In this document: piece by piece, positions 5,263-39,291 of the stretch | Position numbering within the stretch: the stretch's first letter is position 1 | How the letters are laid out: the number at the start of each line of letters is the position of its first letter | Sequence record: NC_019710.1 | Origin: Enterobacteria phage HK140 | Strand: one strand, 5' to 3' | DNA: 40,710 nt | Program-made: the position numbers and the translations under genes | Notes under the pieces: model-generated | What the model was told of the DNA's origin: nothing | Database searches by the model: none | The model's input: only the letters and a program-made list of their open reading frames with translations

Positions 5263-5589
5263 ATGGCGATAGATGTTCTGGATGTAATTTCCCTCAGTCT
5301 GTTTAAGCAGCAGATTGAGTTTGAGGAAGACGACAGGGACGAGCTGATCACGCTGTACGCCCAGGCCGCTTTTGACTACTGCATGCGCTGGTGCGATGAA
5401 CCAGCATGGAAGGTTGCGGCTGATATTCCTGCCGCCGTTAAGGGCGCCGTTCTGCTTGTCTTTGCTGACATGTTTGAACACCGGACGGCACAAAGCGAAG
5501 TGCAGCTTTATGAGAATGCAGCCGCCGAACGCATGATGTTCATTCATCGCAACTGGCGCGGTAAAGCCGAATCAGAGGAGGGCTCCTGA
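5263..5589 (+). CDS. Head-tail connector (gp6-like)
   Basis: 108 aa, first gene after the capsid gene; typical small connector protein position. Confidence 0.55.
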   Translation: MAIDVLDVISLSLFKQQIEFEEDDRDELITLYAQAAFDYCMRWCDEPAWKVAADIPAAVKGAVLLVFADMFEHRTAQSEVQLYENAAAERMMFIHRNWRGKAESEEGS

Positions 5590-28937: not shown

Positions 28938-29519
28938 ATGAACAACTCATGGTGGCAGGAACTAATGCATTTTTTCCTGCAAGGAATGACACTTAAACAG
29001 TTGATTCATATGCTAATCATCCTGATCATATTGATTATTGTTATGCCGGTAAGCGTAAAAGAATGGATAAACCTGCATAATCCAGAAATCCTTCCTCATT
29101 ACTGGATGTATTACATCCTGTTGTTTTGCGTTAGCTATGTGCTTAACGGCGTTGTTAATTCCGCTTATCACGCTGTGACTGAAAGAATTGAGGTATTCGC
29201 TGCTCAGAAGCGCAAATCTAAAGAAGAAAAATATGTGCAAGATTTGTTTGATTCGTTAACTCTTGGAGAAAGAGCGTATTTGGCATTCGCTGTAGCCGCG
29301 AATAACCAGCTAAAGACAGAAAAGGGAAGCCCTGAAGCAATCTCATTGCTCGAAAAAGGGCTTCTTATTCGGATACCTTCTGCTACTGGATATCCTGAAA
29401 TCGACCGTTTTGTTATCCCGGAACGCTATAGAAATGAGTGCTACATTAGGTTTGCTGGGAAGAAAGACAGTCTTATGGATGAACTTATCGCTCAGGATAA
29501 GCATGGCAAAAACAAGTAA
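28938..29519 (+). CDS. Membrane protein, candidate SieB-like superinfection exclusion protein
   Basis: 193 aa; two N-terminal hydrophobic helices (LIHMLIILIILIIVMPVSV, YWMYYILLFCVSYVLNGVV) and a charged C-terminal domain; opposite strand to the surrounding early operon. Confidence 0.45.
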   Translation: MNNSWWQELMHFFLQGMTLKQLIHMLIILIILIIVMPVSVKEWINLHNPEILPHYWMYYILLFCVSYVLNGVVNSAYHAVTERIEVFAAQKRKSKEEKYVQDLFDSLTLGERAYLAFAVAANNQLKTEKGSPEAISLLEKGLLIRIPSATGYPEIDRFVIPERYRNECYIRFAGKKDSLMDELIAQDKHGKNK

Positions 29520-29534
29520 TTAGCAAATGATTTA

Positions 29535-29807
29535 TCATCTCGCCGTCAGTTGTTTTGATTTCCTGTAGCCTGCCGCGTAAATGGCTACGTTTGGCAGGCA
29601 AACACTTCCACTGCATTCATCAACTTTCTTGCAGCGAAGACTTCCGAGTGATGCTGCTTTGTCTGCTCTGACGCAACCAGAGAGCTTTAGCGCAATTTTT
29701 CGCGCCAGTCGCTGCTCTTGCATCGCCTGTTCACGTTGAGCCTGTCTGCGTGCTCTGCGGCGATTTCTGGCGTTATCGTCAGCCAGATATGTAATGACTA
29801 CTGTCAT
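29535..29807 (-). CDS. N: N-like antitermination protein
   Basis: 90 aa from the ATG at 29807 (RBS GGAGG); N-terminal arginine-rich motif DNARNRRRARRQAQREQ; first gene downstream of nutL. Confidence 0.6.
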   Translation of the reverse strand: MTVVITYLADDNARNRRRARRQAQREQAMQEQRLARKIALKLSGCVRADKAASLGSLRCKKVDECSGSVCLPNVAIYAAGYRKSKQLTAR

Positions 29808-30118
29808 GTTGACCTCCGATGAAACAACTTTGGAATTGATAGTGATTGCAAAGTGGTTTCTGGCCCCTCGAATTGAGGGGCAGAAAGAGCATCTCGCCAC
29901 CTAATAGGTCGATGCTCGGATCGAGAGATTTAATTAACCTCGGTTTTGAAGTTATGCATTCACATAAATCCTCCTGTTGCATGTGCAGCATTGGCTGTGT
30001 TTGGCGGCTGCATTTCGCCTATGGAATTGACTTTGGCGGTGACGCGCCGGGTGCTTATCTTCCGGTTGCCGTCGTGCAGCTGCACTTCACGTCACCCCAA
30101 AGCCAACTACTCTTTGGT

Positions 30119-30159: not shown

Positions 30160-30206
30160 CTGCCAATCTGTTCCGTTTGGCTACCAGCGTCCTGCTGATG
30201 GTTAAA

Positions 30207-30292
30207 GAATACTGTAGGTATTTTATTTTGTAAATACTCAAGGTATTTATTTTGGTGAAATAATGATAAGCAAATGAATACAAAGGATATTT
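30207..30292. promoter_or_regulatory. OL operators (three 17-bp sites) and presumed pL
   Basis: GAATACtgtagGTATTT (30207-30223), AAATACtcaagGTATTT (30232-30248), GAATACaaaggATATTT (30276-30292). Confidence 0.6.
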
Positions 30293-30377
30293 ATTTTTTC
30301 GGCGTCTGCTTGTTCAGTGCTTTTTATGCGGGATATGTGAAGTGGATCCCGATAGCTATTGCTGCCGGGATTATGGG

Positions 30378-30746
30378 TTAGTCAGCGAAGGTTAAGACGA
30401 GAATTACCTTAATGATGTCTGCTACAACAGACACGGCCATAGATAAACCAAAGACGATCCAAGCCATAGAGATGTCTTCACTACCATCGTATAGAGTTCC
30501 GTAATCACTGGTATAAGGCGTAAATGTCGCGCCTTGATACAATAGGTATAAGCTTGATCCATAGAGGATAAATGCAGATATCCCTTGTATTGCTATGATC
30601 ACCAGAATCATGAAACGAGCTGATCTATGCGCCCAAGCCTGGCTTATTTTTTCTGATAGAGATTTCGCAAGAAAAGCATGCGCTAAGCCGTAAATTGTCG
30701 AGATTGCCAACATCCCAAAAAAGCTTGCTATAGCGGTTCCAACCAT
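30378..30746 (-). CDS. Small three-helix membrane protein co-transcribed with cI (lambda rexAB position)
   Basis: 122 aa from the ATG at 30746 (RBS AAGGGG), or 129 aa from the TTG at 30767 overlapping the cI stop; three hydrophobic segments; lies between cI and OL. Confidence 0.6.
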   Translation of the reverse strand: MVGTAIASFFGMLAISTIYGLAHAFLAKSLSEKISQAWAHRSARFMILVIIAIQGISAFILYGSSLYLLYQGATFTPYTSDYGTLYDGSEDISMAWIVFGLSMAVSVVADIIKVILVLTFAD

Positions 30747-30763
30747 AAGCGCCCCTTGCGTGA

Positions 30764-31480
30764 TCAAACCAGCCTTAGTTTTGTCTCAATTGCAACGCCT
30801 ATAATCTTGCAGTTTCCATTGATTGGCACGAGAGGCCATGCAGGATTAAGTCCCTTGAGGTATTTATTTCCGCCGTCGATTATCAGCTTCTTGAATGTTG
30901 CTTCGTTAGAGTCAGAAAGTTTTGCTATGACCAAGCTGCCGTTGACCGCCTCCCTTCCGGTATCGAAAAGAACGAATGTTCCCTCTGGAATGCTTAACCC
31001 AACCGGTGCCGTCATTGAATCACCTTCCACTTTAAGCCAGAACGCATTACCTTGAATATGCGCGTCAGACTCAAGCCAAACATCTATGTCTTTAATGGTG
31101 TATGGTTCGCATGCTTCACACCACGAGCCAGCCTGGATACTGCTTAACACCGGATACCTCTTTCCTGCTCTGTATTCCCCTGCATACCTTACGTTGGCAT
31201 CGCTCTTAAGGCTTTCTGCCTGTTCTGCAACCTTGGCAGCAATTGACTGGCTAAAATCAGCAATTGAGACTTGCAACAACCGTGCAAAACCAGATGCAAC
31301 CTCAACGTTTAGCGCGTTTCTGCCATTAAGATAATGCCCTACCGCTCCTTGGGTGATACCCAGTTCATCAGCGATTGAGTATTGGGTTATTCCCAATTCT
31401 TTCTTTTTTGACTCATACAAAGCCTTAAGCCGCTTAGCGTCTTCGAGCTGTTCTGTCGTCAGTGATTTTTTATTTTCCAT
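30764..31480 (-). CDS. cI: CI repressor (HTH plus S24 autopeptidase)
   Basis: 238 aa; N-terminal HTH (QYSIADELGITQGAVGHYLNG), C-terminal GDSM serine motif and downstream Lys; divergent from cro across OR. Confidence 0.9.
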   Translation of the reverse strand: MENKKSLTTEQLEDAKRLKALYESKKKELGITQYSIADELGITQGAVGHYLNGRNALNVEVASGFARLLQVSIADFSQSIAAKVAEQAESLKSDANVRYAGEYRAGKRYPVLSSIQAGSWCEACEPYTIKDIDVWLESDAHIQGNAFWLKVEGDSMTAPVGLSIPEGTFVLFDTGREAVNGSLVIAKLSDSNEATFKKLIIDGGNKYLKGLNPAWPLVPINGNCKIIGVAIETKLRLV

Positions 31481-31490
31481 AGCTTAATTC

Positions 31491-31556
31491 TAATAGCTAA
31501 GGTACTTAAACTAAAAATACCCTGAGTATTGATTGATTTGAATACCTGTAGTATTC
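31491..31556. promoter_or_regulatory. OR operators (three sites) with pRM and pR
   Basis: TAATAGctaagGTACTT (31491-31507, weak), AAATACcctgaGTATTG (31515-31531), GAATACctgtaGTATTC (31540-31556, perfect palindrome); spacing 24-25 bp. Confidence 0.65.
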
Positions 31557-31586
31557 TTTGTTCATGGTTAATAACGGAGAGTGCAT

Positions 31587-38073: not shown

Positions 38074-38397
38074 ATGAAGATGCCAGAAAAAAATGACCTG
38101 TTAGCCGCCATTCTCGCGGCAAAGGAACAAGGCATCGGGGCAATCCTTGCGTTTGCAATGGCGTACCTTCGCGGCAGATATAATGGCGGTGCGTTTACAA
38201 AAACAGTAATCGACGCAACGATGTGCGCCATTATCGCCTGGTTCATTCGTGACCTTCTCGACTTCGCCGGACTAAGTAGCAATCTCGCTTATATAACGAG
38301 CGTGTTCATCGGCTACATCGGTACTGACTCGATTGGTTCGCTTATCAAACGCTTCGCTGCTAAAAAAGCCGGAGTAGAAGATGGTGGAAATCAATAA
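38074..38397 (+). CDS. S: Holin S (dual-start motif MKM)
   Basis: 107 aa matching lambda S ([40 protein letters not shown]...). Confidence 0.9.
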
Positions 38398-38857
38398 TCA
38401 ACGTAAGGCGTTCCTCGATATGCTGGCGTGGTCAGAGGGAACAGATAACGGACGTCAGAAAACCAGAAATCATGGTTATGACGTCATTGTAGGAGGAGAG
38501 CTATTCACTGATTACTCCGATCACCCTCGCAAACTTGTCACGCTAAACCCAAAACTCAAATCAACAGCAGCCGGACGCTACCAGCTTCTTTCCCGTTGGT
38601 GGGATGCCTACCGCAAGCAGCTTGGGCTGAAAGACTTCTCTCCGAAAAGCCAGGACGCTGTTGCACTACAGCAGATTAAAGAGCGTGGCGCTTTACCGAT
38701 GATTGATCGCGGTGATATTCGTCAGGCTATCGACCGTTGCAGCAATATCTGGGCTTCACTGCCGGGCGCTGGTTATGGTCAGTTCGAGCATAAGGCTGAC
38801 AACCTGATTGCAAAATTCAAAGAAGCAGGCGGAACGGTCAGAGAGATTGAGGTATGA
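38381..38857 (+). CDS. R: Endolysin R (lytic transglycosylase)
   Basis: 158 aa matching lambda R ([39 protein letters not shown]...). Confidence 0.9.
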
Positions 38858-39291
38858 GCAGAGTAACCGCGATTATCTCCGCTCTGGTTATCTGCATCAT
38901 CGTTTGCCTGTCATGGGCTGTTAATCATTACCGTGATAACGCCATTACCTACAAAGCCCAGCGCGATAAAGCCACGTACATCATCGCTGACATGCAGAAG
39001 CGTCAACGTGATGTAGCAGAACTCGACGCCAGATACACAAAGGAGCTTGCTGATGCTAACGCGACTATCGAAAGTCTCCGTGCTGATGTTTCTGCTGGGC
39101 GTAAGCGCCTGCAAGTCGCCGCCACCTGTGCAAAGTCAACGACCGGAGCCAGCAGCATGGGCGATGGAGAAAGCCCAAGACTTACAGCAGATGCTGAACT
39201 CAATTATTACCGTCTCAGAAGTGGAATCGACAGGATAACCGCGCAGGTTAACTACCTGCAGGAATACATCAGGACGCAATGCCTGAAATGA
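38854..39291 (+). CDS. Rz: Spanin Rz (inner-membrane subunit)
   Basis: 145 aa; N-terminal 40 residues match lambda Rz, C-terminal half divergent. Confidence 0.85.
39053..39238 (+). CDS. Rz1: Spanin Rz1 (outer-membrane lipoprotein), embedded in Rz in the +1 frame
   Basis: 61 aa from the ATG at 39053 (RBS AAGGAG); lipobox LLGVSAC followed by the Pro-rich stretch [13 protein letters not shown]. Confidence 0.75.

Follow-up and report, generated by a model that had tools for sequence, protein, structure and literature searches.

Here we report that the open reading frame directly behind the cI repressor gene of Enterobacteria phage HK140 is, by sequence identity, hkaS, a long catalogued and uncharacterised gene of the HK620 immunity region. 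The product is modelled with confidence as a small protein of the inner membrane, built of three helices and with hardly any soluble mass. The reading we favour, to which we give a probability of about 0.33, is that HkaS blocks the entry of other phages at the membrane; that it excludes superinfecting phage in some way, of whatever kind, we rate as an even bet. The defence reading is a candidate by analogy only, the analogy being with the occupants of the same position in other lambdoid phages. The window referred to throughout is the entire 40,710 nt HK140 sequence (NC_019710.1).

Genes co-transcribed with a prophage repressor are among the few phage genes that are switched on in every lysogen. 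The three occupants of this slot studied so far, RexAB, Stk and Hex, have each revealed a mechanism of its own, and that of Rex has escaped explanation for 60 years. HkaS adds a fourth, unrelated occupant, in the form of a single small protein with a confident structural model. Should it prove to exclude phages, it would offer a minimal model of infection being stopped by a membrane protein, as well as a factor to be considered in host-range prediction for phage therapy; should it instead tune induction, it would have a bearing on how stable Stx prophages are. It is carried by laboratory phages, the hosts being K-12 for mEpX2 and HK630, and E. coli H for HK620. Still, the slot was already known as variable, and hkaS adds to it another accessory gene that is uncharacterised.

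The hkaS gene and its start codon

The original prediction placed an ORF of 122 to 129 aa between cI and OL, beginning at or overlapping the cI stop, and this description holds in each of its parts. The ORF listing contains a minus-strand frame of 129 aa at 30378..30767 that opens with TTG, and this codon (30767-30765) overlaps the TGA stop of cI (30766-30764). The leftward operators and pL lie at ~30206-30291 and the N gene at ~29535-29808, with the 3′ end of hkaS falling ~85 nt short of the operators. An in-frame ATG at 30746 on the minus strand yields a 122-aa HkaS, which is the form annotated in both HK620 and mEpX2 and the only one possible at the diverged loci L003 and L007. The same form corresponds end to end to PHROG 6534 (E 7.5e-79; the long form aligns through its residues 8-129 with positions 1-122 of the 122 in the profile). 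The TTG at 30767 is an alternative start without conservation in other lineages. The gene begins 17-20 nt behind cI in HK140, HK620 and mEpX2 and at loci L003-L007 and L016-L019, and purine-rich boxes resembling a Shine-Dalgarno sequence occupy the 17-20 nt spacers of L003, L007 and L017 as well; this combination of spacing and ribosome-binding site is common to four lineages whose synonymous sites are saturated.

At the protein level, hkaS of HK620, HK630 and mEpX2 is 96.7-98.3% identical to the HK140 ORF. The gene is named in the record of coliphage HK620 (GenBank AF335538, AAK28867), where its product is given as “unknown”; the HK630 record names the product “HkaS protein”, and that of mEpX2 has a hypothetical protein. 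Its presence in these three records lowers the novelty of having spotted the ORF. In HK620 the gene has the same position behind cI and the same operators as in HK140, with no substantive difference between the two. The backbones do differ: that of HK620 is P22-like, whereas HK140 carries hkaS in an HK022/mEpX2-like siphophage backbone. Coordinates of hkaS and of the features around it are collected in Table 1.

Table 1. Features of the cI-hkaS-OL region of HK140, in coordinates of the window.
Feature	Position	Strand	Basis	Remarks
OR/PRM/PR region, cI-cro interval	31481..31586	.		Operators 31516-31530 and 31541-31555
cI repressor, 238 aa	30764..31480	-	HTH_3 and Peptidase_S24 domains	Immunity of HK620 type; leads the presumed PRM/PRE operon
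Shine-Dalgarno AAGGGG	30752..30757	-	Read from sequence	5 nt 5′ of the hkaS ATG, within the 17-nt cI-hkaS spacer
hkaS CDS, 122 aa plus stop	30378..30746	-	ORF listing, PHROG 6534 match, annotation of relatives, codon analysis	
TM helix 1, aa 2-27	30666..30743	-	AlphaFold2, hydropathy	Uncharged N-terminus, predicted periplasmic
Basic loop, aa 28-44	30615..30665	-		Short amphipathic helix aa 31-38; predicted cytoplasmic
TM helix 2, aa 45-70	30537..30614	-	AlphaFold2, alignment	
Acidic Tyr-rich loop, aa 71-92	30471..30536	-		Beta-hairpin in model; predicted periplasmic
TM helix 3 and C-terminus, aa 93-122	30381..30470	-	Alignment, topology analysis	
Stem-loop AUCCCGGCAGCAAUAGCUAUCGGGAU	30346..30371	-		7 nt past the hkaS stop; no U-tract
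Operator-like palindrome AATAT-CCTTT-GTATT	30277..30291	-	Conservation across lineages	Near-invariant, diverged in L017; probably the true OL3
OL2; OL1	30232-30248; 30207-30223	-	HK620 annotation mapped, conservation	
pL promoter TTTACA-17-TATTCT	30234..30206	-	HK620 annotation, promoter scan, conservation	

Presumed transcription from the repressor operon

The cI protein of HK140 is 99.2-99.6% identical to those of HK620, HK630 and mEpX2. Separated from cI by a 17-nt gap, hkaS is co-oriented with it and has its own Shine-Dalgarno sequence and no room for a promoter; in addition, a promoter scan of the interval from PR/PRM to pL found no sigma-70-like promoter. The gene appears to borrow PRM/PRE. 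With PRM placed by analogy with lambda and 434 (PMC3564112), we infer from synteny with lambda rexAB and 434 hex that cI and hkaS share a transcript, which starts at PRM in the lysogen and at PRE while lysogeny is being established; in the lysogen, this transcript presumably arises in the OR/PRM/PR region. On that reading HkaS would be present constitutively in the inner membrane of lysogens.

A hairpin follows the hkaS stop codon in all lineages, although its sequence differs between them: the hairpins of L003 (z -3.4) and L007 are unrelated in sequence to that of HK140, and the one in L017 is a variant of it with differing arms. The HK140 stem-loop is a candidate for the 3′ end, or for a stabiliser, of the cI-hkaS message. 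A canonical intrinsic terminator behind hkaS was rejected, as the terminator scan returned none and the hairpin lacks a U-tract. Further downstream, where the leftward operators of HK140 are of the type AATAC-N5-GTATT, the “tIMM” annotation of HK620 maps onto the conserved palindrome that we list as the probable OL3. A match to an operator inside hkaS itself (30577-30591) is not kept in other lineages and was discarded as a chance match.

Predicted structure, topology and conservation

The AlphaFold2 model of HkaS (pLDDT 92.3) is a compact bundle of three long helices spanning residues 2-29, 41-73 and 89-121, which, together with Kyte-Doolittle peaks, bears out the earlier claim of three hydrophobic helices. 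Positive-inside analysis across five lineages predicts that the N-terminus is outside and the C-terminus inside. The loop between the first two helices has a net charge of +3 to +5 in all lineages, and that between the second and third a net charge of -2 to -4.

Conservation is unevenly distributed over the protein. The basic loop, with the motif KIsQaWaHRxAR, is invariant at 53% of its positions, and the acidic loop at 18%, making the latter the least conserved and fastest-evolving region. Within the membrane, the first helix has a conserved face of small residues (G3, A5, S8, G11, S16), and the second has an invariant mid-membrane glutamine (Q54) and, at the outer end, SxYLLY, likewise invariant. 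In the third helix S106, D110 and K113 are invariant, and the last octapeptide of the protein, ILVLTFAD, is fully so. The best conserved surfaces of HkaS are the predicted cytoplasmic loop and this C-terminal octapeptide.

Selection and distribution

Pairwise comparison of three deeply diverged hkaS lineages gave pS of 0.77-0.87 and pN of 0.27-0.33, values at which dS is saturated and dN/dS therefore not computable; between the closer loci L003 and L005, pN was 0 and pS 0.118. The 122 codons are retained intact in lineages down to 53% identity, and frameshifted alleles are rare (P0005, P0007, P0009). We conclude that hkaS is a real gene under purifying selection and not a chance reading frame. 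An arms-race signature was also considered and rejected: relative to the Hafnia-type allele, which is 82% identical, substitutions are distributed evenly, with no excess in the periplasmic loop.

Full-length hkaS occurs in 146 of 5426 complete E. coli genomes (~2.7%), and in this set cI and hkaS share the identical 146 genomes and 147 places, a co-occurrence of 147/147. The family occurs only in the immunity regions of prophages. It travels with the immunity module in P22-like podophages, HK022-like siphophages and Stx phages (including Stx2c), and has stayed with one cI lineage while the neighbouring N, replication and recombination modules were swapped. At 42%, its GC content is below the 50% of the window as a whole and close to the 40% of sieB. 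Like morons, or lysogenic-conversion genes, hkaS is a dispensable slot insert missing from related phages and atypical in base composition. The best explanation is that hkaS is an accessory (“lysogenic conversion”) gene inside the immunity module of HK620-type lambdoid phages.

Searches for relatives

Among Pfam, NCBIfam, PADLOC and PHROGs, the sole match of HkaS was to PHROG 6534, the function of which is unassigned; Pfam and NCBIfam returned no match, and PADLOC-DB v2 no defence-protein family at E<=1. Profile comparison by hhalign gave probabilities of 0.7% against RexB, 0.3% against SieA and 0.1% against Hex, none of which indicates similarity. A PDB sequence search with the family profile found nothing, and fold searches with the model returned generic helical bundles only. 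A word-indexed search of 5.8 billion proteins recovered 12 HkaS clusters, all at least 53% identical, and an exhaustive profile search of 1.84 billion representatives recovered one cluster plus a 44-aa fragment. Judged by these searches, HkaS is an orphan family without relatives outside its own cluster. In the literature we found no paper naming hkaS together with HK620 (“hkaS” alone is a fungal herbarium acronym) and nothing on the gene in work on mEpX2, HK630 or HK620 lysogens.

The cI-OL slot in other phages

As originally predicted, hkaS lies exactly where lambda carries rexA-rexB. In published work, occupants of the slot share the PRM transcript with the repressor and in many cases exclude other phages, examples being RexAB, Stk of 933W and Hex of 434 (PMC3564112). 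The earlier generalisation that slot genes are exclusion functions is upheld by these three cases and needs qualifying for Hex, which also guards the repressor from RecA; exclusion is thus not the sole known function of the slot. Its contents vary widely, comprising rexAB in lambda, hex in 434 and unrelated genes in Erwinia, Cronobacter and Fostie phages, those of Erwinia and Cronobacter encoding unrelated soluble proteins; P22 and Serratia phage OS31 have no gene there. Since the genes found there differ or are absent from phage to phage, we regard it as a slot of the repressor operon for accessory genes, with variable content.

RexB of lambda, which with RexA makes up an abortive-infection pair, occupies the same cI-OL slot on the repressor strand and, like HkaS as predicted, is a small polytopic inner-membrane protein expressed in the lysogen (PMC3564112 and general knowledge). 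The two differ in size and topology, RexB having 144 aa and HkaS 122 aa with three predicted TM helices. The helix count of RexB is four. No RexB hit was obtained for HkaS in Pfam, PHROG or PADLOC, and it is flanked by cI upstream and by OL downstream; neither a second ORF nor rexA is present. The original statement that the protein is not RexB agrees with the hhalign comparison, with the number of helices and with the lack of a RexA partner. The further statement that it replaces the rex system is an analogy of position and not of homology.

The hex gene of 434, a phage whose cI is 52.5% identical to that of HK140, is the nearest precedent that has been studied and sits in the same slot, with a start that overlaps or abuts the cI stop. 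Co-transcribed from PRM, it excludes P22, blocks RecA-mediated cleavage of the repressor and lowers spontaneous induction 30-fold (PMC3564112). The N-terminus of Hex resembles a signal peptide and the protein, which forms no TM bundle, looks secreted, whereas HkaS is predicted to be a TM bundle. P22 SieA serves as the model for the entry block proposed below: it is prophage-expressed, resides in the inner membrane, has three predicted TM domains and is sufficient alone (PMC10883804), and HkaS shares with it both the predicted location and the number of predicted TM segments. However, SieA is larger (162-164 aa) and is transcribed from its own promoter in the immI region beside the ejection-protein genes, whereas hkaS belongs to the cI operon. 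No PHROG SieA hit was obtained at E<1, and the hhalign comparison covered the P22 type among the three types of SieA. Exclusion by SieA has been demonstrated; exclusion by HkaS is a proposal made by analogy.

Class I holins of the lambda S type are about 100-120 aa long, with three TM helices and an N-out/C-in topology. HkaS resembles them in size, in its three TM helices and in its predicted orientation. Unlike holins, it ends in ILVLTFAD rather than in a charged C-terminal tail, its dual start is unconserved and it is presumably expressed with the repressor; no holin hit was found for it in PHROG or Pfam, and HK140 has a lysis cassette elsewhere (38074-39291).

Possible functions of HkaS

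We favour a function in exclusion at genome entry, in which HkaS, acting within the membrane, would constitutively bar superinfecting phage without killing the cell. The step blocked would be that of genome entry at the cytoplasmic membrane, with HkaS contacting either the DNA-conduit proteins of the incoming phage, inside the membrane or on its periplasmic face, or a host inner-membrane protein that those conduit proteins use. P22 SieA, T4 Imm and HK97 gp15 work in this way. Because HkaS is small, stand-alone and sensor-less, a passive block is a simpler fit than a triggered suicide system, and a fast-evolving periplasmic loop is what would be expected of a surface in contact with varied phage proteins. 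Against an entry block, the even spread of differences from the Hafnia-type allele shows no clustering in that loop, and the best conserved parts of the protein suggest that its partner sits in the cytoplasm or the membrane and not in the periplasm. The occurrence of hkaS across podophages, siphophages and Stx phages likewise ties it to no single injection apparatus, and known entry blockers of enterobacterial phages are usually encoded near virion or immI genes.

An abortive-infection effector, forming or gating a pore so as to collapse the membrane potential or bring about premature holin-type lysis when certain phages infect, with death of the cell ahead of any progeny, is unlikely, although several features of the protein would suit it. 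RexB, from the shared slot, is itself proposed to collapse the membrane potential; the invariant polar and charged residues within the helices (Q54, S106, D110, K113), the small-residue face of the first helix, fit for helix packing or oligomerisation, and the holin-like topology are compatible with such a role, and the conserved cytoplasmic loop could serve as sensor or gate. Independence of virion type is also what a post-entry mechanism would display. However, there is no RexA-type sensor, cI being the sole neighbour, no homology to RexB or to Abi components in PADLOC, and no holin-typical charged tail, while the phage has its own lysis cassette. A constitutive pore-former would moreover have to be kept silent, and there is no hint of how.

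Quite unlikely, in our estimate, is that HkaS tunes the establishment or stability of the phage's own lysogeny from the membrane, by protecting cI from RecA or by acting on FtsH/HflKC (and so CII) or on ClpXP, modulation of which has reportedly been described for RexB. The effect of hex on spontaneous induction offers a precedent from the same slot, but Hex is unrelated to HkaS and looks secreted. Persistence with one cI lineage through saturating divergence, while surrounding modules were exchanged, would fit a partner of the repressor; this linkage is nevertheless trivial, because hkaS lies between cI and the OL matched to it, where recombination cannot easily part them, and the nearest cI relatives outside the clade have no hkaS. 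The best conserved parts do face the cytoplasm, the site of cI, RecA and FtsH, yet ~17 residues of cytoplasmic loop and a short tail are all that a soluble partner could meet. A one-protein Rex with a fold family of its own, sensing membrane perturbation at genome entry and aborting infection, or a coupling of membrane state to the cI switch through the invariant cytoplasmic face (KISQAWAHRxAR and ILVLTFAD), would be a new mechanism rather than passive Sie, a prospect that we hold to be similarly doubtful.

A conversion function that benefits the host, such as colicin or microcin immunity, envelope stress, transport or antibiotic tolerance, is decidedly unlikely. Colicin and microcin immunity proteins are small and have three to four TM helices, and HkaS, likewise small, polytopic and almost devoid of soluble domains, recalls such intramembrane proteins; low GC and a position expressed in lysogens are typical of morons, the pay-offs of which are varied. 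Its restriction to prophage immunity regions counts against this, as do the lack of a Pfam hit at E<1 to immunity families for colicins or microcins and of a bacteriocin gene nearby in the loci examined. That hkaS is a non-functional passenger trapped between cI and OL is extremely improbable, for although its position makes loss by recombination hard and the rare frameshifted alleles exist, a simple deletion could remove it, the slot of P22 being empty, and purifying selection, codons intact to 53% identity, a conserved Shine-Dalgarno sequence, unbroken co-occurrence with cI and a confident compact fold all speak for a functional gene.

A separate, hydrophobic ORF of 35 aa lies on the strand opposite hkaS at 30274-30381. 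It was considered as a toxin- or antitoxin-like partner and rejected in that role, as the frame is not kept in L003, L007 or L017.

Evolution and distribution of hkaS

The minus-strand ORF that follows cI in HK140, hkaS, is a real gene that is kept by selection. Comparison of its three deep lineages (the HK140/HK620 type, the Salmonella type of loci L003-L006 and the metagenomic type of locus L007) revealed that synonymous sites are saturated in both hkaS and cI (pS 0.75-0.87), whereas non-synonymous divergence is 0.27-0.33 in hkaS against 0.07-0.08 in cI. The Salmonella-type loci L003 and L005 have 11.8% synonymous and no non-synonymous differences in hkaS. Protein identity to HkaS is 82% for a Hafnia-type allele, 60% for the Salmonella type and 53% for L007; all members are 122 aa long and 43 positions are invariant. 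Among 5426 complete E. coli genomes, the HK620-type cI occurs in 146 genomes at 147 places and hkaS in the same numbers, all full length (∼2.7% of genomes). Even inside E. coli hkaS is clearly more polymorphic than cI: identity reaches 99% or more in 141 of the 146 genomes for cI but in only four for hkaS, the rest lying at 95-99%. From these divergence and co-occurrence data we conclude that hkaS is maintained, evolves at about four times the rate of its repressor and, in this E. coli sample, is never missing from HK620-type immunity. Three rare alleles (P0005, P0007 and P0009, 1-2 members each) have an upstream start and their first ∼30 codons in another frame, which costs them TM1; the cause is either a pseudogenising frameshift or an assembly error.

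At the level of sequence, HkaS is an orphan. Pfam, NCBIfam and PADLOC gave no match, and the sole match in PHROGs was its own family, PHROG 6534, annotated as of unknown function. A search of 5.8 billion proteins returned 12 clusters from E. coli, Hafnia and Salmonella, none of them below 53% identity, while a profile search across all 1.84 billion representatives returned one 50% cluster and one fragment. HkaS shares its slot with lambda RexB and 434 Hex, and its three predicted TM domains with P22 SieA, but resembles none of them in sequence (hhalign probabilities of 0.7%, 0.1% and 0.3%, respectively), and it is not recognisable as a holin; the phage has a separate lysis cassette. The gene entered GenBank with the HK620 genome (AF335538, product “unknown”) and is annotated as hypothetical in every later record, so the ORF is a rediscovery of a known, uncharacterised gene; we found no paper discussing it in the literature searched.

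Genomic context and expression

HK140 is a near-complete lambdoid phage genome whose virion genes are 96-97% identical to those of mEpX2 and HK022, and whose immunity region is 98.5-99% identical to those of HK620, HK630 and mEpX2. The original prediction placed a three-helix membrane protein, not recognised as RexB, between cI and OL, where lambda has rexA-rexB, and the layout, the helices and the absence of RexB similarity all held. Because a full-length sieB is present, the prophage already has one classical exclusion gene besides hkaS.

Features of the HK140 immunity region, with the lysis cassette
Feature	Coordinates	Strand	Remarks
cI	31480-30764	-	First in minus-strand order
hkaS ORF	30767 or 30746 to 30378	-	Directly after cI
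Stem-loop	30371-30346	-	7 nt past hkaS stop; ∼-14 kcal/mol
hkaS-to-OL spacer		-	∼85 nt
Palindrome AATAT-CCTTT-GTATT	30277-30291	-	In block near-invariant across aligned lineages, more diverged in L017
OL operators and pL	∼30291-30206	-	
nutL		-	Between OL/pL and N
N	∼29808-29535	-	
sieB, full-length	28938-29519	+	PF14163, PHROG 1301; GC 40%; just left of N
cro, cII, O, P	from 31587		Rightwards
Lysis cassette	38074-39291		
Operator-like GATAT-CCCTT-GTATT	30577-30591	+	Inside hkaS coding region
Strongly hydrophobic 35-aa ORF MNTKDIYFFGVCLFSAFYAGYVKWIPIAIAAGIMG	30274-30381	+	Convergent to hkaS, overlaps its stop codon

The slot between cI and OL holds rexA-rexB in lambda, a P63C-domain protein in Erwinia phage Midgardsormr38, a 200-aa soluble protein in Erwinia phage vB_EhrS_49, the 134-aa Hex in 434 (cI 52.5% identical), no ORF in Serratia phage OS31 (cI 72% identical) and nothing in P22 (39 bp). 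This variable content, together with the low GC of hkaS (42% against 50% for the genome, and similar to that of sieB), suggests that the cI-OL position is an accessory “moron” slot expressed in the lysogen. The hkaS immunity module occurs in P22-like podophages (HK620, vB_EcoP-611R6), HK022-like siphophages (mEpX2, HK630, HK140) and Stx2c phages, and the N, replication and recombination modules flanking it differ between phages. As hkaS is flanked by cI and by the operators to which cI has to bind, recombination cannot readily split them, and their linkage needs no functional coupling. Cronobacter phage ENT39118 (L014 2321-2683) and coliphage Fostie (L015 2322-2657) have a conserved soluble protein of 111-120 aa after cI, another uncharacterised occupant that is without annotation in ENT39118, followed by a short S24-peptidase-like protein.

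Two starts are available to hkaS in HK140. Initiation at the TTG (30767-30765), which overlaps the cI stop TGA (30766-30764), would yield a 129-aa protein. The ATG at 30746, seven codons downstream and with AAGGGG 5 nt ahead of it, gives the 122-aa form annotated in HK620 and mEpX2, which PHROG 6534 covers end to end. L003 and L007, both diverged, have no in-frame start further upstream, and the 122-aa form is their sole option. The cI-hkaS spacer contains a purine-rich box in every lineage and, at only 17-20 nt, leaves no room for a promoter; a consensus scan likewise found none between PR and pL. This anatomy, together with the demonstrated PRM-cI-hex and PRM-cI-rexAB operons (PMC3564112), argues that hkaS is probably co-transcribed with cI from PRM (and PRE).

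Since PRM and pL run in the same direction, a stop or processing signal is expected after hkaS. Hairpins of unrelated sequence occupy the place of the HK140 stem-loop in L003 (∼5381-5421) and L007 (∼5383-5412), and the further, diverged locus L017 has a variant with different arms. None of the four is followed by a U-tract, which rules out a canonical intrinsic terminator, and conservation of position but not sequence suggests an RNA 3′-end or stability element.

Predicted structure of HkaS

The AlphaFold2 model, built from seven sequences only (pLDDT 92.3, pTM 0.79), comprises helices at residues 2-29, 41-73 and 89-121, a short helix at 31-38 and a beta-hairpin at 74-88, with almost no soluble mass. 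The N-terminus is uncharged and, in every lineage, loop 28-44 is basic (+3 to +5) and loop 71-92 acidic (-2 to -4), which by the positive-inside rule predicts N-terminus out, loop 1 in, loop 2 out and C-terminus in. Conservation is highest on the predicted cytoplasmic side: 53% of the loop motif KISQAWAHRxAR is invariant, and every lineage has the same C-terminal octapeptide, ILVLTFAD. Polar residues within the helices (Q54, S106, D110 and K113) are also invariant, and a small-residue face of TM1 (G3, A5, S8, G11 and S16) is conserved; variability peaks in the acidic, Tyr-rich outer loop (18% invariant). HkaS is probably located in the inner membrane and, whatever its role, the model suggests that it would act in or at the membrane.

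Possible function

Homology gives no clue to function, so the argument is one of anatomy and precedent. Among published proteins encoded in the repressor operon, RexAB excludes T4 rII, Stk of 933W excludes HK97, and Hex excludes P22 and additionally shields the repressor from RecA (PMC3564112); a single inner-membrane protein, P22 SieA (three predicted TM domains), is enough by itself to block DNA injection (PMC10883804). By analogy, the exclusion or defence role originally proposed for hkaS is plausible. The simplest reading of a tiny polytopic protein that would be made constitutively in the lysogen, and without a partner, is a passive blocker of genome entry at the inner-membrane step, to which we give a probability of about one in three. 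A Rex- or holin-like abortive pore would suit the polar residues inside the membrane helices, the conserved cytoplasmic “gate” and the fact that hkaS is not tied to a virion type, but HkaS has no sensor and such a pore must be kept silent, and we consider it unlikely. More doubtful still is a role in lysogeny of the phage itself, either Hex-like or by modulation of a protease; the Hex precedent and the conserved face towards the cytoplasm favour it, but it would have to work through a minute cytoplasmic surface. The signal-peptide-like N-terminus of Hex itself (MIRIAALLSILLTTSANSEC... on translation of 434 hex, L011 2609-3013) sits awkwardly with the cytoplasmic action on RecA-mediated repressor cleavage proposed for it. 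A host-fitness function (bacteriocin immunity, for example) ranks lower again, and a functionless passenger is barely credible, being largely excluded by the selection data.

If HkaS excludes phages, it would be a new, non-homologous case of lysogeny-expressed prophage membrane proteins blocking superinfection. The gene is experimentally tractable, though unlikely to surprise a specialist. Only if HkaS proved to be a Rex-like sensor-effector in a single protein, or a modulator of the cI switch linked to the membrane, would it go beyond this, and we think either improbable.

Annotation of the immunity region

The 35-aa ORF convergent to hkaS is probably spurious, as L003, L007 and L017 have no conserved ORF there; two proteins, called hypothetical or putative, are listed for this stretch in some phage records, and the ORF may be one of them. 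Other lineages do not conserve the operator-like sequence inside hkaS, which probably matches by chance. The palindrome at 30277-30291 is closer to the operator consensus AATAC-N5-GTATT than the OL3 annotated in HK620 (which maps to 30254-30270) and lies inside the element annotated there as the terminator “tIMM”; for this immunity type both annotations, OL3 and tIMM, may have to be revised.
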